A stretch of 64,000 bases of DNA from Mytilus edulis (lineage: Eukaryota). Location of the stretch: assembly GCF_963676685.1 (NCBI RefSeq), contig NC_092351.1, positions 85,064,001-85,128,000 on the forward strand, read 5' to 3'. Under the pieces are notes generated by a model, which had not been told where the DNA came from, made no database searches, and saw nothing but the letters and a program-made list of their open reading frames with translations. The number at the start of each line of letters is the position of its first letter. Position 1 is the stretch's first letter. Shown piece by piece: positions 12,201 through 44,600 of this stretch. Both the position numbers and the translations under genes were made by a program.

Positions 12201-15013
12201 TTTTCAGTGTAATTTTATCTCCCTTCTTGCTATTTGAGGCATAAAACGTGAAAAAAATATTTGATAGGGGCATAAAAAAAATGGCAAGTAGCACACTATC
12301 TACACTAGGGACTATATTTGTGGACAACGAAAATCAAGGGGACGATAACTGTGTACTCGGATATAAAATTTTAATCCTGATATAACCAATGTTTTTTCAA
12401 CTGATCGGGCGGAGCTTACGTTTTAATTTGCATAAGGACAGTCTATTTGAAGATGTGTGTGATTAGGATGATTGCCGTTATAATTAATATTGATTTTTAA
12501 TCACCTATCAGTGTCATCAAAGGAATTTACAAAAAAATGACTGGACACTTCATTGATGAGTTTATCCTAAAACACCTATCTATAGATGGACTGGTGTATT
12601 ATAAGCGAAACAGTTAAACCCCGCCCAGTCAAGTGAAATAAATAGAGTTATATCTATGATGAGTTTTATCTGAACTTGCATTTGTATGTGGATACTATCT
12701 TGTGTGTAGATATTGAAGAGTTACCATGCATGGTTCGATTTGAACAAATTTGCACTGAGATAAATGTATATTGACAAGTACTTTTAAACACAACACGGAT
12801 GCAATATTCAAATAAGACATCAACTTGTATCGTAAAACTGCATGCATTTGGAGAGGTAAATACATCAACATGTAGACAGTATAATAGAACAGTCAATTTT
12901 CTATCTTATCATTAATCTGAAGAGGGAATATGATAGGACATAATGATAAAGTAAGTTATCTAGCATTGATTTTGGTGATGGCTGAATACACCATTTAATA
13001 AAAATGGAAAGGTATATTTTCTATAAAAAATAATGTCTTGAACGATGGTTAAAAAGAATGGTATACCCTTTGGACAATGTTTAACACAAATTGTAAGATT
13101 AAAACTTTTCATTCGAGTTCGAAGAGCTTAACGTTTTTGCAAGATCTAATTAATAAGTGTTCGAAATCTACAAAACAAAGTCTTCATATTTTTATATTGA
13201 TACCAGAATTCTTTATAGAAATATCTCGATTTTTATGACGTGATTGCATTTTTAACAAATATCTAAATGAGAGAAACATGAGTATAAACTGCTATATATA
13301 AATAAAAACGGTTATATATACAAATAGATTAACAGTGATTGTACGCTTCTAAAAATGAACAAATTTTACATATTTTAATATCAGCCTAACATTATTACAT
13401 TGCTTATGCTTCCCTAACTGGAATTTGAATTCATGCTTATGATATTTCATGGCACATACTAGCCTTGCACTATGCAAGACGCACTGGACCACTCGACCAA
13501 CTAGGCTCTACTGATAAGTCTTATGTAGACGACACGTCCATCAGGCGTATTAAATAATTAGCCTGGTTCCTTTGATAACTATTATCTTATATAATAAATA
13601 TTTAATTTTGGGCGATTTGCCTCTTTTTAAAATCTAATAATAGGTTTTTAAGATTTTTGTTGGATATAATAATGCACGTTTAAATGCAAAATTCCCATTT
13701 CTAAAACTGCATTTGCAAAAGCATTTTTTTTTAATTAATGAATTCATAAAATAAAATTATAAAAAGTTCTTGTGTTGTACCAATCGATCTGCCATGGACA
13801 ATATATGAGGGGGAGGACAGGGGTAAGGGAGACAGGGTGAAAGGTGGTAGGAGAAAGAACTAAGGGGGTGGGAGAAAGGAGAAAGGGGGTAGGAGAAAGG
13901 AGAGGAAGGCTGGGAGAAAGGAGAAAAAGTTGGAGAAAGGAGAAAAAATAAAATATCTCTCTTTTTTCGGTAAATTAAAAAAAAAAAATAAGGAGAAGAG
14001 GGGTAGGAGAAAGGAGAATAGGGATGGGAGAAGGGAGAAGGGTACCCCCTGTCCTCCCCCTCATAACTAAGGAAAACGTAAACTAGCAACAACAAAACAA
14101 CGATGATAAAGTTGCTGAATTTCCCGTTTATTGTCAAGTTATAGAGATTGTAAAGGTTGCTGTAACCTTCCTCCGGATAGTTACGAAGGCGAACTGATAT
14201 AAGAACAGGAAGATATGGGACCAACAAGGATATTGATTGATTGATACTTGGCTGCTCTACGTCCAGCAGGACCAAATAATAGGACAGGCTTACAAATAAA
14301 CGCCTTTCTTTTTCATTTGTTTTTTTAAGAACTAATTAGAAATGTCTTAATTTACAAAGTATTCGTTAAATGATGTTTGCTATTAATGTTTTTTAATCAG
14401 TGTAAAAACTCAACAGGGATAAATGGCATACATATTTTACTCAAGACGCACCGTTCGTCTACACAGTAATCTACTAGTGCAACAGAATGAATATAATTGG
14501 ATTGCAAAGTCAAAAGCATAGTTGAATTGCATTTAAACCAAAACAACGAAAACTGTTTCCAAATACAACAAAAGCAATCGATCCCTAAGGATTGAAAACC
14601 TTAGTACATTGCTTTTATTAGAATTATGTTATACTTTATAAACAGTTAATTTACAGAAAATGAAAGTTTCAAAGATAAGTTGTCAACTCCAACGTCCTGG
14701 CTTCTGGCATGGCGATTTCATAGTCGACAAAACTTCCACCATCAGTATCAACCAAGGGGTTGTAAAAAAACTTACCAAAGCAATCGGCGTATACGTACAC
14801 TTGCTCTTTGTAGGCACATTCTATTCGTTTTATCAATTAATCTAAAATGGTAATATTATCGGATACTAGGGTAAAGAAATTGGCGAGATTTTAGAACAAA
14901 CAAAAACATTTTCTAAAGATTCATGCTGCAGTTATTTTAATTTAATTTAATGTTTTCTTGTAGACATGGCAGAGCCAGCGGATATGATGGTTATTTCTGT
15001 CCTAGCAGAATAA
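299..15013 (+). CDS. Multi-exon gene, copy 1 (5' end outside window): Cys-containing exon, basic linker and uncharacterised ~180-aa invertebrate domain; probably secreted
   Basis: GT-AG exons with compatible phases: 299-370 (GDQLPCPDGLTSSTGFTPGCVNSS), 2552-2593 (CSGIGKLKEARPIR), 8308-8343 (SAGKGKRKKARR), 9509-9678 (IWFPVFVAFEGNGKSVYDAW...NANIRM), 9992-10152 (VKVEFFKNNQ...NYFSIAG), 11566-11732 (DHQRKFYVNQNYGGCAKDQGW...RNWTR), 14964-15013 (NMAEPADMMVISVLAE*). The joined 698 nt plus 1 upstream nt give 233 codons with no internal stop. Confidence 0.85.
3900..3950 (-). mobile_element. Retrozyme end fragment, truncated within the hammerhead
   Basis: AATAAACTCATCATAGATACCAGGACTAAATGTTGTATATACGCCAGACG matches the start of the 18525 and 62366 fragments. 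Confidence 0.55.
5351..5621. mobile_element. Kolobok-like MITE with TTAA TSD (copies 22190-22446, 36802-37074, 51958-52214)
   Basis: TTAA|GGTGGTACCCAACACT...AGTGTTAGGTACAACC|TTAA in unit 2; RR..YY termini with a TTAA TSD. Confidence 0.7.
5690..6030. repeat. Degenerate ~55-60-bp tandem repeat (all units)
   Basis: Recurrent TTT..GTTTAAGACAAACGGAGACAACAA-like motif at ~5830, 5887, 5940 and 6000. Confidence 0.55.
6446..8200 (+). mobile_element. Non-autonomous Helentron-associated (HINE/DINE-1-like) element, unit 1 only
   Basis: Inserted in a T-run (empty site GGTTAGTTTTTTTAATTTAG in units 2-4). Subterminal inverted repeats GCTCACCT (6449) and AGGTGAGC (8167), 5' hairpin TGGCCGAAAGGCCA, CGTC/CGT microsatellite ~6492-6532, two ~500-bp internal repeats (6553, 7513), 3' hairpin AGGCTCTTTAGAGCCT, no TSD. 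Confidence 0.8.
6982..7435. mobile_element. MITE nested in the HINE, 4-bp TSD (Sola2-like termini)
   Basis: AGTT duplicated at 6978-6981 and 7436-7439; imperfect TIR GGGACAATA/TATTGCCCC. The second HINE repeat lacks this segment. Confidence 0.65.
8353..8518 (+). mobile_element. Interspersed repeat 3' fragment just after the micro-exon B donor (all units)
   Basis: Ends GAACAGTGGTATACTACTGTTGCCTTTATT; absent at the matching position after micro-exon A (2600). Confidence 0.55.
10478..10635. mobile_element. Interspersed repeat fragment replacing intron sequence in units 1 and 3 (also ~40165-40320)
   Basis: AAGAATGTGTCCATAGTA.ACGGATGCCCCACTCGCAC...GTACTAAGTTTCAAGTTGATT is present only in units 1 and 3, where ~600 bp seen in unit 4 is missing. 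Confidence 0.55.
13410..13510 (-). mobile_element. tRNA-derived SINE head (decayed)
   Basis: Minus strand TTGGTCGAGTGG (A-box-like) and GAATTCAAATTCC (B-box-like) about 55 nt apart. Confidence 0.4.
13505..13585 (+). mobile_element. Short decayed retrozyme fragment (also ~43298-43378)
   Basis: CTGATAAGTCTTATGTAGACGACACG...CCTGGTTCCTTTGATAACTA resembles the reverse complement of 25531-25605. Confidence 0.6.
13807..14062. mobile_element. Purine-rich MITE with perfect 17-bp TIRs (copies 28628-28880, 43600-43816; absent in unit 4)
   Basis: GAGGGGGAGGACAGGGG ... CCCCTGTCCTCCCCCTC with GGAGAAAG-type internal repeats; ATAACT flanks both sides in unit 2. Confidence 0.8.
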
Positions 15014-16258: not shown

Positions 16259-16959
16259 ACACGAGCCTTAAGAAGATTTATTGCTGTTATTTAAAGTTGA
16301 AAAGAAATATTAATTATTTGTTGGAGGAGAATTATATTAAAATGAAGAGATGTGTTAGGACAACTACAAATCAAAGCCCAAATGATGTGTGTATAAGCAT
16401 CAATAAGTCGACAGTAAGACTTAAACAATGATAAAAAATAACCCTATGTAAGATGAAATACAACTCGACATAAGCTTATATTATAGAAATCAAACGAAAA
16501 CACTAGGGGCATGTTTTATGACCAAACAATAAAACAGAATATAACAGACAGCTATTAACGAGAAACCCTGAATTACAGGCTCACGAATTAAAGACTGATG
16601 TTGAATGTAGCGAGGTAAAATATACTGCGAGAGCTCAGTCTTCCTTCTTACTTGAGACCATGGTGTTATAGTAAAACAGTTGAATGTTAAGGGTTAACAG
16701 TCAGACATAATACACGTAAGTACTTCATGGTTACTCAGGTCACTGAGAGGCACTTATAATTATTGATAAATCATGTCCTAACATGTTAAAGAATCAATCA
16801 GTACACAAACGAATTATTGAAAAGTATAACCATGTCTTTGATATTTGAAAATCATCATTGACCTAACGAATAGTCAATGGAAATTTTGAAATGTCGTATC
16901 ATATTGCGAGAAGAGCTATTGAATCAATATATTCATCGTATTTCTTATATAGAGATGAC

Positions 16960-17135
16960 TTAGCTGTATTTGGCAAAACTGTTAGGAAATTGGTTCTCAA
17001 TGCTCTTCAACTTCGTATTTTATTTGGCATTTTTAACATATTTTGATTCGAGCATGACTGATGAGTCTTTGTAGACGAAACGTGCGTGTGGCGTATATGT
17101 GAAATTTCAATCCTGGTATCTATCGTGAGTTTATT
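16960..17135 (+). mobile_element. Decayed retrozyme fragment with degenerate hammerhead (also ~31785-31960, ~46703-46878, ~60668-60843)
   Basis: CTGATGAGTCTTTGTAGACGAAACGTGCGTG at 17058: the cleavage triplet has mutated to GUG and stem I is broken; GAAA>GACA in the unit 4 copy. Confidence 0.7.
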
Positions 17136-18524: not shown

Positions 18525-18678
18525 TAAATGAACTTATCATAGATACCAGGATTGAAATTTCATATTAACGCCAGACGCACGTTTCATTTACAAAATACTC
18601 ATCAGTGACGCTCGAATTAAAAAATGTTAAAAAGGCCACATAAAGTACGATGTTGAAGAGCATAGAGGAACAAAATTT
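18525..18678 (-). mobile_element. Retrozyme fragment with weakened hammerhead (also ~33368-33520, ~48275-48428, ~62366-62520)
   Basis: Minus strand GAGCGTCA CTGATGA GTATTTTGTAAAT GAAA CGTGCG TC TGGCGT; core boxes intact, stem II mismatched. Confidence 0.7.
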
Positions 18679-21020
18679 CATAAATAAACTCAGTGATTTA
18701 TATTCACATTGACAAATAATATCTAACTTCATTACTTATTCCGGAAAACATGGTAAGCCATGTAAATGTAGTGTAGTCAGTGTTTTGGTACTTTTTTTAT
18801 CAGTTCATATACAAATATATATGTATAAATGAATGCTTAAGATGGGAGAAATAAGTGCAATTCTAGTAAATTGTTTTATCGAAATGTTAATTTTGTTTGT
18901 GTGACCTTCTCGGAATTGTGATTTTTTTTAACAGTTCGCAACTTCATTTTTAGAAGTAAGCCAAAATATTAACAACAGCTACATTTATCTGGACAACTTT
19001 ACATGAAATATGTTCATAACTGCACGAAAATTAGTAAGCTTAACCTTCGGAAAAACACCCAAAAACCACAACTGCGATCATTTTTTTATTAATCCACAAC
19101 AGGAAAAGATGGATATTGTGAATTACACGAAAAACACAAATACAGTTTTGTCGTCGATAATTTTTAAACCAAAAGAAGAGAAATATAAATTATTTCACCG
19201 TACTGTGACAAATGGAGAACAAAAACACTTGAAGACAGTGCTTTATTGAGGGACCAACAACTACTAATAACGGACTAATGGGGATAAAAACTTATAAAAA
19301 TACTATTTCTATTAAATGGGATTTAATGTAATTTTATCGCATTATATGAATGTTTGTATTATTAACTAGTTTATGTAATTTCTATATAAAAGCAAATTTT
19401 AAAAAGTTTTTTCTGAAAAATTCCTTTTGACAACAGCTGGATGATTATAACTATTTAAATAGATTTACATTTGTTTTGATATTTTCATCAATATCAATGT
19501 TAATTCAATTGTTGTATTTTGTTTAATCTCTTTATAATATTAATTGAAAAATAATGATTCTAAATTAGACAAAAACAATCATCATACTTTTTGTATCGGC
19601 ACATAATTTGTATAACAATGATAGTACGATGACCTTACACGTTGTTTAAGTTTCTCTGAATTACCTGCCTTATTTGAAAGTTCTTTAGTAACAGAAAGAG
19701 GAAACGGCAATTTACCGATGTTCCTAACTCGTAAATACAATCTAAATATAGAAAAAGAGGAAAAAGTCAAAGAAGGCCCATAAATAGGCCAATTAATTTA
19801 TTAATTTATAATCGTCTCATCTAAGGATGTTTTTTTAGTGATATCGTCATCGTTGTTATTGGAATAAATGGCTTCCTAATATTCATGACCTTGAACAAAT
19901 AATTAGTATTGTTCTCCAGTTACTATATTTTTAAGACAAAACGTTAATACAAGGATTTCTCGAAAAAGTCAGGTCAAATTAGTTTGGAATTATAGAAAAA
20001 TTATACAAATGACGGGAAAAAGCTGACGCACTTTAATCTCATATTTAGCAATTGCATCATTTGGGTCTCAAATTGTAAGAAAATAAGTGTAGAATCTGCT
20101 CAAATTTAGCTTAATGATTGTTTATGAGCTATTTAAAACTAAAATGAAAAAGTGGGTGATATGGGGCAAAATATTTTATTCTGTTATGTAGTAAAAAAAG
20201 AGTCTTTAACAGGATATGACTTCATCCTTAATTGATGTGTTAATTACGTGTATCTTTTCTCAAGCTATATTGATAAATGATTGTATCATACACGTAAGTA
20301 CTTGTACCTGTAAGACTAAGACTATGAATGTATTTTATCGTAATTTGCATACATACATTAGATTAGGGGAGGTTTGGGATCCCGCTAACATGTTTGAGTG
20401 CGCCACTTTCTGTATATATGTGCCTGTCCTAAGTCAGGAGCCTGTAATTCAGTAGTTGTCGTTTGTTGATGTTTAAATATTTGTTTTTCGTTCAATTTCT
20501 GTACAGAAATTAGGCCATTAGATTTCTCGCTTGATATTAAACTAAAATGGCAAAGTTATTTATGTGTTCGTGTCTTTCATTGTGTAGTTAAAAATTAGTT
20601 GTTCAAATAATGTATAATTACACATTGTCAATTAATAAAAGAAAACATGTAGATAACATGTAACCAAGACAGCAAATCATCGACCTTTTCGAAAACATAT
20701 CACAGATCGGTTTTGAACACAAAACCATTGAGAACTAATAAAAATAAATCATCCAAAAACTATAATACGATTAAGAATTAGATAAAGACAATTACTCACA
20801 AGGTTCTCGACTTTAAAAATGCCCATGTTGTAAGGTTAAACTATGTCCTGAAATCTCAACAAGTTGCATTGTTAGCATAATGAAAAAAATGATCAGGACG
20901 GTTATTTTTTTTTTAATTTAGAATAAATTAAGTGATAAATGATAAATCGGACTGTTTACTTTTAAAACAGTAATTGTATAAATTAACCTGTGTAATATAA
21001 ATTATTTCTCCGTTCTTCAG

Positions 21021-24000: not shown

Positions 24001-27000
24001 TTTTTTTCATCATACTAAACTCAAAATATACACAAGAAACTAAAATTAAAAATCATACAAGACAAGACAAACAAAGGCCAGAGGCTCCTGACCTGAGACA
24101 GTCGCCAAAATGCGGCGGGGTTAAACGTGTTTTTTTTTTAGATCTTAACTCCCTATACCTTTATCTAATGTAGAAAAAACAAACACACAACAATACGCAT
24201 ATTCAAACTCAGTTTAAAAGAAGCCCGAGTCCGATGCCAAGTAGGTAACAAAGGAAATAAACAAAATGATAATGATACATAAATTAACAATGGACTATAA
24301 GAAGTTACTCACATGATTGAAAGATTATGAATTCATCATATAAATATCATCTATAATTACATGTGTTTATTTGCTTCCTTTGTCATATTATTGCATGTTT
24401 ATATTATCATTTTTTCGTATAATGAATCTATCAAATGCCTCATTTTATGTATTGAATTCCAGATTACACTATCAAAAAGCCACCCATAAAAAAACACACT
24501 TACAAAGAGTACTTTTCTTTTATAAATATTTAAAAAATGTATGACACAACTGTGATGATTGTTTACAGTTTGGTTTCCTGTATTCGTTGCGTTTGAAGGA
24601 AATGGTAAGTCTGTGTATGACGCATGGCGAAGTCAGTCAGAATGCAACCCTCTTCCCACGTCTTTTGGAACAGTCGGTTCTCAGCGTCATCTCCGAAATA
24701 GTGTTGTGGATGACTGGAATAATGCAAATATACGAATGGTATGTCGCAACTTATAATAGTTTATGTCAGAACTATAAAAATTCGTTCCCAACTAAATTTA
24801 TTAAGACATCATTTTATTTAATTCATTATATCAATATATTAACTTTTATACGTTCATTTTAAGTTCACAGCAAAACAAGAGAAGTCAACACATTTCGTTT
24901 TCATGCATATTTTCAGAGAAATATCATTATATACTTTAGAGCCTGCCAACACTGATTTTGAACCTGAAGGCCTCGTCTTGTTCAAAGACATATTAAAAAC
25001 TAAGTGTGCATGTTTAATATGTTAAAGAAATATGATTTCTATAATTCACAGGTGAAGGTTGAATTTTTCAAAAACAACCAAGTTGTTGCATGGATGACTT
25101 TTAATGGTAGGAATACAGATAAGATGAACTGGTTTAGCAAATCAAACCTTGCGCAGAGTGGTTTTAATGATTTAGGATCACGCAGTACATTTAACTACTT
25201 TTCGATTGCTGGGTAAATGTTTGCTAAATATATAATTATTTTGTTTTATTTAACGGAGGCACACAATTTGTCCAATTGATTTCAGTGTTGAGTTCATCGT
25301 CAAGCATTGACAGCTCTTTTGTCTTCAGTTCAAATTAAGTAACAGTCATTCCATGTTAAAGCAATAGATTAGGTTGCATTGTACTTAAACAAATCTTCAT
25401 ACTTTTAATTTCATTTAAGGGCTTATCATCCTTTCTTTCGCCTATATCGCCTGACGAATGCGCTCCGTAATCCTTGTTTGACGACGACACAAAGTAAAAA
25501 GAGACATTATTAAGTGTAAAATTGTCTAATTAGTTATCAAAAGTACCAGGATTATAATTTTATACGCCAGACGCGCGTTTCGTCTACATAAGACTCATCA
25601 GTGACGCTCAGATCAAAATAGTTAAAAAGCCAAACAAATACAAAGTTGAAGAGCATTGAGGACCCAAAATTCCAAAAAGTTGTGCCAAATACGGCTAAGG
25701 TAATCTACTCCTGGGGTAAGAAAATCCTTAGTTTTTCGAATAATTCAAAGTTTTGTAAACAGAAAATTTATAAAAATGACCATATAATTGATATTCATGT
25801 CAACACCGAAGTGCTGACTACTGGGCTGGTGATACCCTCGGGGACGAAACGTCCACCAGCAGTGGCATCGACCCAGTGGTGTAAATAGTTATCAAAAGTA
25901 CCAGGAGGAATAAAAAAACAGAAAAAAACGATAAACAGTTTATCGGATTTCCTATAAATATCGTAAATTATCAGCCGATTAACACATTGTGGACCTTGTT
26001 TGCTCGTTCGATGTGCTCATTGCCCCACAAAGTTTCACATTGTACATGATGTCGGTAGAACATCCCATTATTTTTCCGTACTGGTTCCCTGGAACCTATG
26101 AAGTACAATACATTTACTTGAGATATGTGAAATATGCAATAATGTACCCTTCTTGTTTTAAATTCATGCATTTTTATTTAATTTCAATCGCGAAAAAAAG
26201 TAAACAACAATGACAACACGTCATTAGGTTTCATTTAATACACACTTTACCAACATATGCATACATGTGTATTTTGAAACTAACACGCATGCGTAGTAAT
26301 AAGTTTGTTTTTTATATGATGTACTACTTTCTTGTATGTTCTTTATGACCGGGAAAAATTGGTTGTGGTACACAAAATACAGAAGCTATGATCAATTGTC
26401 CCGATTCCAATTTCAAAATGATAATATTTCTATACCTTAGCAGCAATACACTGACTATCCCTCGTATGGAATATACATTTGTCAATAGCAGCAATACACT
26501 AACTACCCCTCGTATAGAATATACATTTGTCAATAGCAGCAATACACTAACTACCCCTCGTATAGAATATACATTTGTCAATAGCAGCAATACACTGACT
26601 ACCCCTCGTATGGAATATACATTTGTCAATAGCAGCAATACACTGACTACCCCTCGTATGGAATATACATTTGTCAATAGCAGCAATACATTGACTACCC
26701 CTCGTATGGAATATACATTTGTCAATAGCAGCAATACACCGACTACCCCTCGTATGGAATATACATTTGTCAATAGCAGCAATACACTGACTACCCCTCG
26801 TATGGAATATACATTTGTCAATAGCAGCAATACACTGACTACCCCTCGTATGGAATATACATTTGTCAATAGCAGCAATACACTGACTACCCCTCGTATG
26901 GAATATACATTTGTCAATAGCAGCAATACACTGACTACCCCTCGTATGGAATATACATTTGTCAATAGCAGCAATACACTGACTACCCCTCGTATGGAAT

Positions 27001-29838
27001 ATACATTTGTCAATAGCAGCAATACACTGACTACCCCTCGTATGGAATATACATTTGTCAATAGCAGCAATACACTGACTACCCCTCGTATGGAATATAC
27101 ATTTGTCAATAGCAGCAATACATTGACTACCCCTCGTATGGAATATACATTTGTCAATAGCAGCAATACACTGACTACCCCTCGTATGGAATATACATTT
27201 GTCAATAGCAGCAATACACTGACTACCCCTCGTCATTTGTCAACTCACACGATATTCAAGAGCTTGGAGCTGCTACTTTCAAAATTAATAAGCCAGGATC
27301 GTCGTTTATCTCACATATTCCTTGGAAATTACCACGGCCTTATAAATGAATTGTTAGTGTCTGCTACTCAAATAATACAATATGGTATTTAGTTATAGAT
27401 TCTAGGTGATGAAGTTGTGTATATTTTTATTTTTATTTAGTTTTGCAGTTAACTGTATTCGTGCTATTATGTTTCTTTTCTATTGGTCGTAAGCATTTTG
27501 TCCGTGATGTATATATGTTTACACAGTTTTGACTGTTGTCACATTAACTTATTATGTTTGTTTTGCGCACACAATTTTGTCGATATAACAGATTTATAAA
27601 CAACTTCCACAAAAGTGGTAGGTTTATCTAGTTATAAAACAGGGTTATACCCACTATTTTCGTCGTAAAAAGGTAAAATGTCTGTACCAAGTCGGGGATA
27701 TTATAGTTGTTTTTTTTTCCTTCCATCAGTTGATAACGTTCGATTTTGTCCGTTAAAATGGACTTATCTGTTTGAATTTACCTTGGAGCTCGGTATTTTT
27801 GTTATAAGTTTTTATAATTACATGGAAAATGGATATCCTTATGTCACAGAATGATTTCCAATACCGTGTGAATGAATGTCATATTATATTTTGTTTTTAT
27901 AATCCATCACATTGTTAGTTTCGAAAGTCAAACTGTGCGTAAACAACCTATTTCAAGGAACTGTTTTCTGCCTAAATTCACATTCTAAAATTGAATAGAA
28001 TAAACTACACAAACAAACGAAGTTACAAATAAAATAAACATGTATAAGAAAAGGTCAAATGATAAAAATCTTTTTGAAGAACACTGTCAAGATACAGCAT
28101 TTCATTTGATTGTTGTCTTAAATAAATTCATCAAATCCGTTTAAATGAATGTCCAACAAATACATTTTTTCAGAGATCATCAACGAAAATTCTATGTAAA
28201 TCAGAACTACGGAGGATGTGCTAAAGATCAAGGGTGGATGTACGTCCTTGATCAAGATAGACGATGTCCATATGAACGCATTGGCTTGATTCCGATGTTC
28301 CTTTATACAAAGAACTTCACAGATAGAAACTGGACCCGTAGTAAGTTCTAATTGAGTCATTTATAATCTTCACATTAAAACAGTTTGAAAACATTGTTCA
28401 CTTAGTATAAATTAATATTTATGATTGGAGATTTAAACATTATTTGCTTGATCTCTTCGCTAATGATAAGGGTGGTTTACTATTAAAAATATCAAAGGTC
28501 TCGAAAAATAAACATGTTTTAAGTGATAATGCATACTTTTTTGAAGGAAGAAGTCATATATTAATCTTTACCAAAGTGCACATTCATTGAACTAATTTGG
28601 TGGTTGAACGTTTCTTCCAATATAACTGAGGGGGAGGACAGGGGCAAGGGAGACAGGGAGAAAGGGGGTAGAAGAAAGGAGAAAGGGGGTGGGAGAAAGG
28701 GGAAAGGGGTAGGAGAAAGGAGAGGAAGGCTAGGAGAAAGGAGAAAAAGTTGGAGAAAGGAGAAAAAATAAAATATCTCTCTTTTTTCGGTAAATTAAAA
28801 AAAAAATAAGGAGAAGAGGGGTAGGAGGAAGGAGAAGAGGGATGGGAGAAGGGAGAAGGGTACCCCCTGTCCTCCCCCTCATAACTAAGGAAAACGTAAA
28901 CTAGCAACAACAAAACAACGATGATAAAGTTGCTGAATTTCCCGTTTATTGTCAAGTTATAGAGATTGTAAAGGTTGCAGTAACCTTCCTCCGGATAGTT
29001 ACGAAGGCGAACTGATATAACAACAGGAAGAAATGGACCAACAAGGATATTGATTGATTGATACTTGGCTGCTCTACGTCCAGCAGGACCAAATAATAAG
29101 ACAGGCGTACAAATAAACGCCTTTCTTTTTCATTTGTTTTTTTAAGAACTAATTAGAAATGTCTTAATTTACAAAGTATTCGTTAAATGATGTTTGCTAT
29201 TAATGTTTTTTAATCAGTGTAAAAACTCAACAGGGATAAATGGCATACATATTTTACTCAAGACGCACCGCACCGTTCGTCTATACAGTAATCTACTAGT
29301 GCAACAGAATGAATATAATTGGATTGCAAAGTCAAAAGCATAGTTGAATTGCATTTAAACCAAAACAACGAAAACTGTTTCCAAATACAACAAAAGCAAT
29401 CGATCCCTGAGGATTGAAAACCTTAGTACATTGCTATTATTAGAATTATGTTAAACTTTATAAACAGTTAATTTACAGAAAATGAACGTTTCAAAGATAA
29501 GTTGTCAACTCCAACGTCCTGGCTTCTGGCATGGCGATTTCATAGTCGACAAAACTTCCACCATCAGTATCAACCAAGGGGTTGTAAAAAAACTCACCAA
29601 AGCTATCGGCGTATACGTACACTTGCTTATTGTAGGCACATTCTATTCGTTTTATCAATTAATTTAAAATGGTAATATTATCGGATACTAGGGTAAAGAA
29701 ATTGGCGAGATTTTAGAACAAACAAAAACATTTTCTAAAGATTCATGCTGCAGTTATTTTAATTTAATTTAATGTTTTCTTGTAGACATGGCAGAGCCAG
29801 CGGATATGATGGTTATTTCTGTCCTAGCAGAATTATAG
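21021..29838 (+). CDS. Copy 2 of the same gene, 5'-truncated (six 3' exons, ORF intact)
   Basis: Exons 21021-21062, 23372-23407, 24569-24738, 25052-25212, 28174-28340, 29786-29838. Splice sites canonical; ends VLAEL*. No homolog of exon 299-370 in the unit. Confidence 0.75.
25531..25906 (-). mobile_element. Non-LTR retrozyme (355-nt monomer plus 21-nt terminal redundancy)
   Basis: TAGTTATCAAAAGTACCAGGA occurs at 25531 and 25886 (period 355). Absent from the matching site in unit 4 (AATTGTCTAAAAGAGGAAG, ~55170). Contains a complete hammerhead motif on the minus strand. Confidence 0.85.
25563..25609 (-). ncRNA. Type I hammerhead ribozyme (minimal, palindromic stem III)
   Basis: Minus strand reads GAGCGUCA CUGAUGA GUCU-UAUGU-AGAC GAAA CGCGCG UC^UGGCGUA: intact CUGAUGA and GAAA boxes, 4-bp stem II, GUC cleavage triplet, stem I GCGUCA/UGGCGU. 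Confidence 0.85.
26438..27233. repeat. 48-bp minisatellite, ~16.6 near-identical units, unit 2 only
   Basis: Unit TAGCAGCAATACACTGACTACCCCTCGTATGGAATATACATTTGTCAA; unit starts run from 26438 to 27206 (16 x 48). Confidence 0.97.
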
Positions 29839-41600: not shown

Positions 41601-44600
41601 GCATACTTTTTTGAAGGAAGAAGTCATATATTAATCTTTACCAAAGTGCACATTCATTGAACTAATTTGGTGGTTGAACGTTTCTTCCAATATAACTGAC
41701 TACTGTTGGGACAAAATATATCAAAGTTATAGAAAACTTCATCGGCTCTAACTCAAAATATGGCCAATTTTATATTCAGAGGGTGTTAGAATCTTTTACA
41801 GCTTCGGATAAAGCTTATTTTTAACCTTTTTAACCTGGACCAAATCACTACTTTACTTTAAAATTCATGAATCGATTTTTTTCAGTGTAATTTTATCTCC
41901 CTTCTTGCTATTTGAGGCATAAAACGTGAAAAAATTATTTGATAGGGACATAAAAAAAAATGGCAAGTAGCACACTATCTACACTAGGGACTATATTTGT
42001 GGACAACGAAAATCAAGGGGACGATAACTGTGTACTCGGATATAAAATTTTAATCCTGATATTACCAATGTTTTTTCAACTGATCGGGCGGAGCTTACGT
42101 TTTAATTTGCATAAGGACAGTCTATTTGAAGATGTGTGTGATAAGGATGATTGCCGTTATAATTATTATTGATTTTTAATCACCTATCAGTGTCATCAAA
42201 GGAATTTACAAAAAAATGACTGGACACTTCATTGATGAGTTTATCCTAAAACACCTATCTATAGATGGACGTTATAATTATTATTGATTTTTAATCACCT
42301 ATCCGTGTCATCAAAGGAATTTACAAAAAAAATGACTGGACACTTCATTGATGAGTTTATCCTAAAACACCTATCTAGATGGACTGGTGTATTATAAGCG
42401 AAACAGTTAAACCCCGCCCAGTCAAGTGAAATAAATAGAGTTATATCTATGATGAGTTTTATCTGAACTTGCATTTGTATGTGGATACTATCTTGTGTGT
42501 AGATATTGAAGACTTACCATGCATGGTTTGATTTGAACAAATTTGCACTGAGATAAATGTATATTGACAAGTACTTTTAAACACAACACGGATGCAATAT
42601 TCAAATAAGACATCAACTTGTACCGTAAAACTGCATGCATTTGGAGAGGTTAATACATCAACATGCAGACAGTATAATAGAACAGTCAATTTTCTATCTT
42701 ATCATTAATCTGAAGAGGGAATATGATAGGACATAATGATAAAGTAAGTTATCTAGCATTGATTTTGGTGATGGCTGAATACACCATTTAATAAAAATGG
42801 AAAGGTATATTTTCTATAAAAAATAATGTCTTGAACGATGGTTAAAACGAATGGTATACCCTTTGGACAATGTTTAACGCAAATTGTAAGATTAAAACTT
42901 TTCAATCGAGTTCGACGAGCTTAACGTTTTTGTAAGATCTAATTAATAAGTGTTCGAAATCTACCAAACAAAGTATTCATATTTTTATATTGATACCAGT
43001 GTTCTTTATAGAAATATCTCGATTTTTATGACGTGATTGCATTTTTAACAAATATCTAAATGAGAGAAACATGAGTATAAACTGCTATATATAAATAAAA
43101 ACGGTTATATATACAAATAAATTAACAGTGATTGTACGCTTCTAAAAATGAACAAATTTTACATATTTTAATATCAGCCTAACATTATTACATTGCTTAT
43201 GCTTCCCTAACTGGAATTTGAATTCATGCTTATGATATTTCATGGCACATACTAGCCTTGCACTATGCAAGACGCGCTGGACCACTCGACCAACTAGGCT
43301 CTACTGATAAGTCTTATGTAGACGACACGTCCATCAGGCATATTAAATAATTAGCCTGGTTCCTTTGATAACTATTATCTTATATAATAAATATTTAATT
43401 TTGGGCGATTTGCCCCTTCTTAAAATCTAATAATAGGTTTTTAAGATTTTTGTTGGATATAATAATGCACGTTTAAATGCAAAATTCCCATTTCTAAAAC
43501 TGCATTTGCAAAAGCATTTTTTTTAAATAAATGAATTCATAAAATAAAATTATAAAAAGTTCTTGTGTTGTACCAATCGATCTGCCATGGACAATATATG
43601 AGGGGGAGGACAGGGGTAAGGGAGACAGGGAGAAAGGGGGTAGGAGAAAGGACTAAGGAGAGGAAGGCTGGGAGAAAGGAGAAAAAGTTGGAGAAAGGAG
43701 AAAAAATAAAATATCTCTCTTTTTTCGGTAAATTAAAAAAAATAAGGAGAAGAGGGGTAGGAGAAAGGGGAAGAGGGATGGGAGAAGGGAGAAGGGTACC
43801 CCCTGTCCTCCCCCTCATAACTAAGGAAAACGTAAACTAGCAACAACAAAACAACGATGATAAAGTTGCTGAATTTCCCGTTTATTTTCAAGTTATAGAG
43901 ATTGTAAAGGTTGCTGTAACCTTCCTCCGGATAGTTACGAGGGCGAACTGATATAAGAACAGGAAGATATGGGACCAACAAGGATATTGATTGATTGATA
44001 CTTGGCTGCTCTACGTCCAGCAGGACCAAATAATAGGACAGGCTTACAAATAAACGCCTTTCTTTTTCATTTGTTTTTTAAAGAACTAATTAGAAATGTC
44101 TTAATTTACAAAGTATTCGTTAAATGATGTTTGCTATTAATGTTTTTTAATCAGCGTAAAACCTCAACAGGGATAAATGGCATACATATTTTACTCAAGA
44201 CGCACCGTTCGTCTACATAGTAATCTACTAGTGCAACAGAATGAATATAATTGGATTGCAAAGTCAAAAGCATAGTTGAATTGCATTTAAACCAAAACAA
44301 CGAAAACTGTTTCCAAATACAACAAAAGCAATCGATCCCTAAGGATTGAAAACCTTAGTACATTGCTTTTATTAGAATTATGTTATACTTTATAAACAGT
44401 TAATTTACAGAAAATGAAAGTTTCAAAGATAAGTTGTCAACTCCAACGTCCTGGCTTCTGGCATGGCGATTTCATAGTCGACAAAACTTCCACCATCAGT
44501 ATCAACCAAGGGGTTGTAAAAAAACTTACCAAAGCAATCGGCGTATACGTACACTTGCTCTTTGTAGGCACATTCTATTCGTTTTATCAATTAATCTAAA

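Follow-up and report, generated by a model that had tools for sequence, protein, structure and literature searches.

One insertion in the stretch of Mytilus edulis DNA analysed here is a young copy of a mussel retrozyme, and the way in which its relatives end points to the enzyme that spreads them. In the model that we favour, to which we assign a probability of about 0.6, a Naiad, which is a Penelope-like element, supplies the reverse transcriptase and endonuclease that insert the retrozyme into the genome by way of a borrowed 63-nt hairpin, probably off a 355-nt RNA circle. The retrozyme is a known element. Its helper and start signal are unpublished as far as searched: no publication linking mussel retrozymes to Naiads was found in the literature covered, outside which most subscription journals lie. 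Two papers came up for retrozymes and Naiads together, PMC8557442 and preprint 10.64898/2026.07.22.740005.

The window, by which the whole 64,000-nucleotide stretch is meant, contains four tandem gene units of ~15 kb each. When these paralogous units are compared, the retrozyme is found in unit 2 only, and units 1, 3 and 4 provide empty sites. The features discussed below are as follows.

25213..28173, plus strand: putative host intron of an uncharacterised gene, GT..AG, phase 2.
25530, no strand: extra base (T) at the priming junction, absent from all three empty sites.
25531..25906, minus strand: retrozyme insertion, 376 nt, 1.06 units.
25531..25569, minus strand: 39-nt tail from the cut site to the family's fixed 3' end, the likely start of reverse transcription.
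25564..25607, minus strand: type I hammerhead (Rfam RF00163), predicted cut 25570/25569.
25571-25578, minus strand: self-complementary 8-mer over stem III, read from the sequence.
25818..25880, minus strand: 63-nt hairpin at unit positions 45-107, directly after the fixed 3' end within the unit.
25886..25906, minus strand: 21-nt terminal overlap repeating tail positions 19-39; its twin is 25531-25551.

The first 21 nt of 25531-25906 are the same as its last 21 nt, with a period of 355, and the repeat is no longer than that. Numbered from the cut site, the copy starts at +19, makes one lap of the 355-nt unit and ends at +39. Period and unit comparison reproduce the structure proposed in the first-pass annotation, a private 376-nt insertion in which a single 355-nt unit is followed by 21 nt of overlap. 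The lack of a target site duplication (TSD) and the loss of 2 nt, also claimed there, are borne out against the three empty sites. That annotation overlooked the extra T at 25530, which is likely to be non-templated or misincorporated. At the right junction, a GA can be assigned to element or target (2-nt microhomology). The same extra base stands directly after +39 in 8/64 loci, a recurrence suggesting that the first nucleotide is non-templated or misincorporated, with an empty site available for the focal copy alone. The focal copy is 100% identical to array units on several other contigs and represents a young 355-nt subfamily of the published Mytilus retrozyme. A different repeat is inserted ~13 nt from the unit-2 retrozyme site at ~10485 (unit 1) and ~40170 (unit 3); it and the retrozyme are two independent insertions into one short A-rich stretch.

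An intronic position antisense to the host gene had also been proposed. Exons at 25052-25212 and 28174-28340 flank the intron with GT-AG signals and consistent phase, which fit that placement. The intron is nonetheless called putative, on splice signals and phase, because the upstream exon (25052-25212) has no reads in three RNA runs. The downstream exon yields only a sub-threshold DUF7098 match. The same putative intron holds a 48-bp tandem repeat of ~17 copies (26438-27230). Older retrozyme remnants are scattered through the gene units and represent few independent events. Those on the plus strand (13510-13581, 43303-43374, 16959-17118 and twins) are damaged in the core or in the triplet at the cut, short minus-strand remnants (18534-18684 and twins) keep the core motif, and others lie at 14511-14766 and twins.

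The minus-strand type I hammerhead, with a cut predicted between 25570 and 25569, was correctly recognised at first reading. Its core is complete: a 6-bp stem I, the CUGAUGA core, a 4-bp stem II, GAAA, a 2-bp stem III with a GCGC loop, and a GUC triplet. The Rfam model Hammerhead_1 (RF00163) covers 25564-25607 of the minus strand over its whole length with 33.0 bits (E 2e-6). Because gathering is set at 34, a scan at that threshold returns no match in the focal element. A 34-nt core word has 7826 exact matches in the genome and its reversed control has 0, so this recurrence is not chance. The stem III of two pairs is of the invertebrate type, and its palindrome would allow a dimer to form. A single-pair stem III and poor cleavage as a monomer mark the dimer-dependent amphibian type. 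A cloned mussel repeat is reported to self-cleave at ~0.1 per min, and dependence on dimers is an amphibian report in the accessible part of the same account (PMC7229834). By analogy, dimeric cleavage would not be needed for the mussel hammerhead.

Folding predictions do not make the hammerhead the minimum-energy state, which it misses by 8 kcal/mol in the circle (z 0.77 alone), and shuffled sequences fold about as well as the whole 355-nt circle (z -0.9). Two further candidates were rejected. Nine nucleotides that are the complement of part of the core pair with it in the predicted circle with P ~0. A second hammerhead on the opposite strand at 25818-25880 has its core motif in 1/233 copies, and the stretch mirrors the hairpin. 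The focal copy carries a single hammerhead and therefore cannot excise a unit or release a circle itself; it is most likely an inert dead end.

At least 176 close matches to the focal unit exist in the genome, many of them identical and in arrays with a period of 353-356. The unit is short and low in GC, and arrays reach 16 units. A 54-nt word joining core and tail has 1629 exact genome matches. Compared by eye, a published 375-nt M. galloprovincialis retrozyme (PMC4918200 Additional file 11) agrees in the core, the tail, the hairpin and words of the body with the focal unit, which almost certainly belongs to this Mytilus family. In M. galloprovincialis, repeats of 350-390 bp are reported to carry ~5000 such hammerheads, together with self-cleavage and abundant circles that are the dominant form in tissue (PMC7229834).

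The assignment to metazoan non-LTR retrozymes made at first reading agrees with the type I hammerhead, the short low-GC tandem units at many loci and RNA of the ribozyme strand. An LTR-like organisation had been named as the contrary outcome. The copies have scattered 5' ends with no fixed 5' end, and a search over 39 loci found no consistent TSD and no 4-bp TSD. The LTR retrozymes of plants, with type III hammerheads in LTRs and a 4-bp TSD, were considered and set aside for an element whose hammerhead is type I, whose units are in tandem and which has no TSD.

The ends of copies, numbered from the hammerhead cut site, reveal how copying begins. Among the consecutive loci behind the first 100 of the 1629 exact matches, 72 of 73 end at +39..+45; the exception, L257, ends at 278. 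The same fixed 3' end occurs at 38 of 39 loci in a set biased toward long copies, which has three loci in common with the first set; two loci duplicate each other. A control on the first 30 of the 7826 core matches used a query without the tail. None of these 30 copies ends at the cut site and all enter the tail, two breaking off near +24 and +30. The 5' ends, on the other hand, are scattered round the unit, giving copies of 0.16 to 16 units (49 of the 73 loci hold less than one unit and 24 hold more). In the long-copy set 5' ends seem to cluster at +10..+20, which the unbiased set does not bear out (2/67). Among the first 100 tail-only matches, 15 are without the exact upstream word and 2 of those begin at the cut site. 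With one array, these make up the three loci that start there (L232, L256, L262).

Copying therefore begins inside the unit, at a set position, and in nearly every case passes over the cut site. Circular permutation of the copies, a check named in the first-pass annotation, does not extend to both ends: the 3' end is fixed at +39..+45 and only the 5' end varies. Its reading of the monomer-plus-overlap structure as the footprint of a circle holds for the read-through of the cut site. The 21-nt overlap is one random truncation out of the scattered 5' ends. As a single draw from that distribution, a monomer plus 21 nt cannot by itself separate a circle from tandem linear RNA, and its length fits both equally. 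Two individual loci have further peculiarities: the 5' junction of L054 carries a tail in inverted orientation, a feature reminiscent of the Penelope-like elements (PLEs), and L054 shares a 2-nt deletion haplotype with L053 on a different contig.

Directly past the fixed end lies a sequence that the retrozyme has in common with Naiads. The hairpin at unit positions 45-107 is identical to the Naiad family N3 at 55 of 63 nt (87%, E 3e-18), the sole strong match between unit and N3. Three Naiad families, N1, N2 and N3, open with a homologue of it. Insertions of N3 stop 0-4 nt short of the hairpin in 11/11 ends from 9 loci, and those of N1 stop at the same point in 6/6, so that the 3' ends of retrozyme and Naiads share one register at the common hairpin. 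The predicted fold is identical in the retrozyme, N2 and N3, with z-scores of -2.4 to -3.5 (retrozyme -3.0); that of N1 has an extra side hairpin. Across 10 rows, which are related to each other and one of which supplied the predicted structure, two-sided changes occur in 8 of 23 pairs (13 cells). None of 500 shuffles reaches this cell count, and slid controls give 2-5. The stems thus covary across the three Naiad families.

The proteins of these Naiads are recognisable. The N1 protein has a GIY-YIG match above cut-off at aa 179-269 with a weak reverse transcriptase (RT) match behind it, and CxC and DKA motifs, read in N1 only, are visible. The N3 protein has the same domain order with both Pfam matches below cut-off, and its endonuclease (EN) region is 61% identical to that of N1. 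N3 is intact in the genome in many near-identical copies. No canonical hammerhead motif was found on either strand of the N3 unit, and Naiads are reported to lack canonical hammerheads (PMC8557442); N3 makes tandem copies all the same. Homology and position of the hairpin indicate that a Naiad-type helper very probably copies the mussel retrozyme into the genome. The account of the M. galloprovincialis element, in the part available, names PLEs only as a strong candidate helper (PMC7229834). The first reading had likewise invoked Penelope-type copying, and the fixed 3' end, random 5' truncation and Naiad-like hairpin in register agree with it; the Naiad link itself had been missed.

Reads from two stranded raw-read runs of one study cover the retrozyme body to a depth of ~570-1070 in one orientation and 70-140 in the other, a 5-11 fold excess. 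A minus-strand RPL36 control has the same read orientation as this excess and so identifies the retrozyme RNA as the hammerhead strand. The two runs contain 277 and 319 unit-junction reads with no pile-up of starts or ends, and such reads come equally from circles or tandem transcripts. The older allele at 25741 is present in 84-88% of reads, making the young subfamily the lesser part of the RNA sampled in the two runs, which carry the same species label as the best-matching datasets and may be from a sister species. Expression is that of the family and not of the focal copy. Judged by sequence, several internal T4-T6 runs would make Pol III transcription unlikely.

The favoured model orders these observations into a cycle. 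Transcription of the arrays yields RNA of the hammerhead strand, as observed at the family level. Hammerheads would then release unit-length RNAs that are ligated to circles, as the published work describes (PMC7229834). A Naiad protein, to judge from homology and position, would bind the hairpin at unit 45-107. AT-rich DNA would be nicked, presumably by the same enzyme, and internal reverse transcription would start at +39..+45, immediately before the hairpin on its 5' side. The RT would cross the resealed cut site, go round what is probably a circular template and stop anywhere, leaving 0.16 to 16 units, and repair would close the 5' end without a TSD. The focal copy would record a stop after 21 nt of lap two. 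Situated 3' of the start, the hairpin is regained only after a full lap, and survival of the element would therefore be tied to circular or tandem templates.

Arrays bear on which of these templates is used. The sample comprises 30 arrays with at least 2 full units and 147 units in all; units with at least 12 differences were dropped. Variants are fixed in every unit of 25 of the 30 arrays, and 11 have a fixed variant absent from every other sampled locus. Cut-site junctions are exact in 216/219. Some arrays are without any unit-private change (for example, 9/9 and 15/15 units), and overall 106 singleton variants compare with 22 shared by a subset of units, the latter mostly in older arrays. 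This pattern fits arrays born from a single monomer that was copied repeatedly, with later DNA-level duplication in the older ones. A variant in units 4-5 of array L034 is carried by every one of the five full units of L047, a candidate source-daughter pair connected via a monomer.

A rather unlikely alternative keeps the same Naiad helper and start and takes uncleaved linear array read-through as the template, with growth and homogenisation at the DNA level and circles as a by-product. DNA-level duplication also builds arrays and could homogenise them, and the 22 subset-shared variants, mostly in older arrays, are what such growth leaves. Tandem copies of the hammerhead-less N3 suggest that a circle may be unnecessary. 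Uncleaved RNA was used by the PLE of an anole in vitro (PMC11167929), and unequal crossover has been proposed for retrozyme amplification (preprint 10.64898/2026.07.22.740005). Read-through would, however, require up to 15 hammerheads to be left uncut. It also has to contend with variants fixed in all units of 25/30 arrays, several without unit-private change, and with the reported dominance of circles in mussel tissue (PMC7229834). The template is probably an RNA circle.

The genome also contains several PLE families with intact frames of RT and C-terminal GIY-YIG and with hammerheads of their own. Such elements (L134-L136, L142, L095, L141, L131, L132, L137-L139) end in (TA)n at a fixed distance past a hammerhead or hammerhead-like motif, and two of the families have two end points ~35 nt apart, like the published tail. 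Beside PLE copies (L132:1097 and 1537, L093:99 and 541, L140, L144, L097) lies a second element. Each of its units, of ~440 nt, has a hammerhead-like motif and, after it, a stretch resembling a tRNA in which words like an A box and a B box occur. An improbable reading makes one of the C-terminal-endonuclease families the helper and the hairpin an ancestral relic. These intact families, like the retrozyme, end a fixed distance past their hammerheads, and Xenopus retrozymes are said to resemble the pLTRs of PLEs (preprint 10.64898/2026.07.22.740005). Against this, no sequence or tail common to the hairpin or unit and these PLEs was found among 50 GIY-YIG loci, in a BLAST comparison that misses the diverged N1 hairpin. 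The survey scored 150 of 858 GIY-YIG candidates, and other families may exist. Furthermore, the four families with mapped ends run into (TA)n, which retrozyme ends mostly do not, and the register of the retrozyme end is that of the Naiads.

It is very improbable that the enzyme copies self-cleaved linear monomers by jumping off one at its 5' end and onto another at its 3' end. The three loci that start at the cut site are of the kind this would produce, but three is close to the expectation from even truncation (roughly estimated at 1-2), almost all junctions are exact (216/219), and arrays are not haplotype mosaics. It is scarcely credible that the host selected the insertion as a regulatory ribozyme for this gene copy: the intact core in a putative intron is explained by youth, and the insertion lies opposite to the host transcript, is identical to many dispersed copies and is private to one of four paralogues. 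Facing away from the host pre-mRNA, the focal hammerhead would not cut it, and the insertion bears no apparent sign of host function.

We give an even chance to a more specific form of the favoured model, in which the retrozyme is a chimera with a Naiad start hairpin grafted behind a hammerhead and is multiplied by target-primed rolling-circle copying of the 355-nt circle for up to 16 laps. If so, the helper of an animal retrozyme would be named, and a portable 63-nt signal would turn a circular RNA into a template for genomic insertion. For the enzyme that spreads animal retrozymes and its point of initiation, this genome offers a candidate in Naiad N3, along with a short signal that covaries and a precisely bounded window for the start. 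Naiads gain a candidate recognition RNA, and the circular-template model becomes directly testable in vitro.

Several known systems share parts of this design. Like the non-LTR retrozyme of Mytilus galloprovincialis (Cervera and de la Pena 2020, PMC7229834), the element has a type I hammerhead, tandem units of ~350-390 nt, low GC and no LTR features. It differs in belonging to a young 355-nt subfamily without a TSD at the focal site, and in the accessible text of the published account neither a fixed end nor a start site nor a Naiad hairpin is described. Vertebrate retrozymes are described as non-autonomous PLEs that resemble hammerhead-bearing pLTRs, with local amplification by unequal crossover (preprint 10.64898/2026.07.22.740005). 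Use of PLE machinery would be common to both cases. The mussel match, in contrast, is to a Naiad family without a canonical hammerhead and not to a pLTR; the available portion of that preprint names no mollusc and finds Naiad in coral only.

The Poseidon PLE of the anole (Frangieh et al. 2024, PMC11167929) initiates internally downstream of its hammerhead in vitro and nicks at ATT, with uncleaved RNA as substrate. As proposed for the mussel, the internal start lies past the hammerhead, nicks are AT-rich and genomic ends mark starts. In contrast to the retrozyme, the anole element is autonomous, belongs to a different clade, has two start sites in a stem-loop inside its ORF and uses a linear uncleaved template in vitro. 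With Naiads (Craig et al. 2021, PMC8557442) the retrozyme shares the start hairpin, which does not figure in the consulted part of that account, as well as the 3'-end register, 5' truncation, partial tandems and an occasional inverted 5' piece (L054). The two differ in that Naiads, as described there, encode EN and RT and lack a canonical hammerhead, whereas the retrozyme encodes nothing and has one hammerhead.
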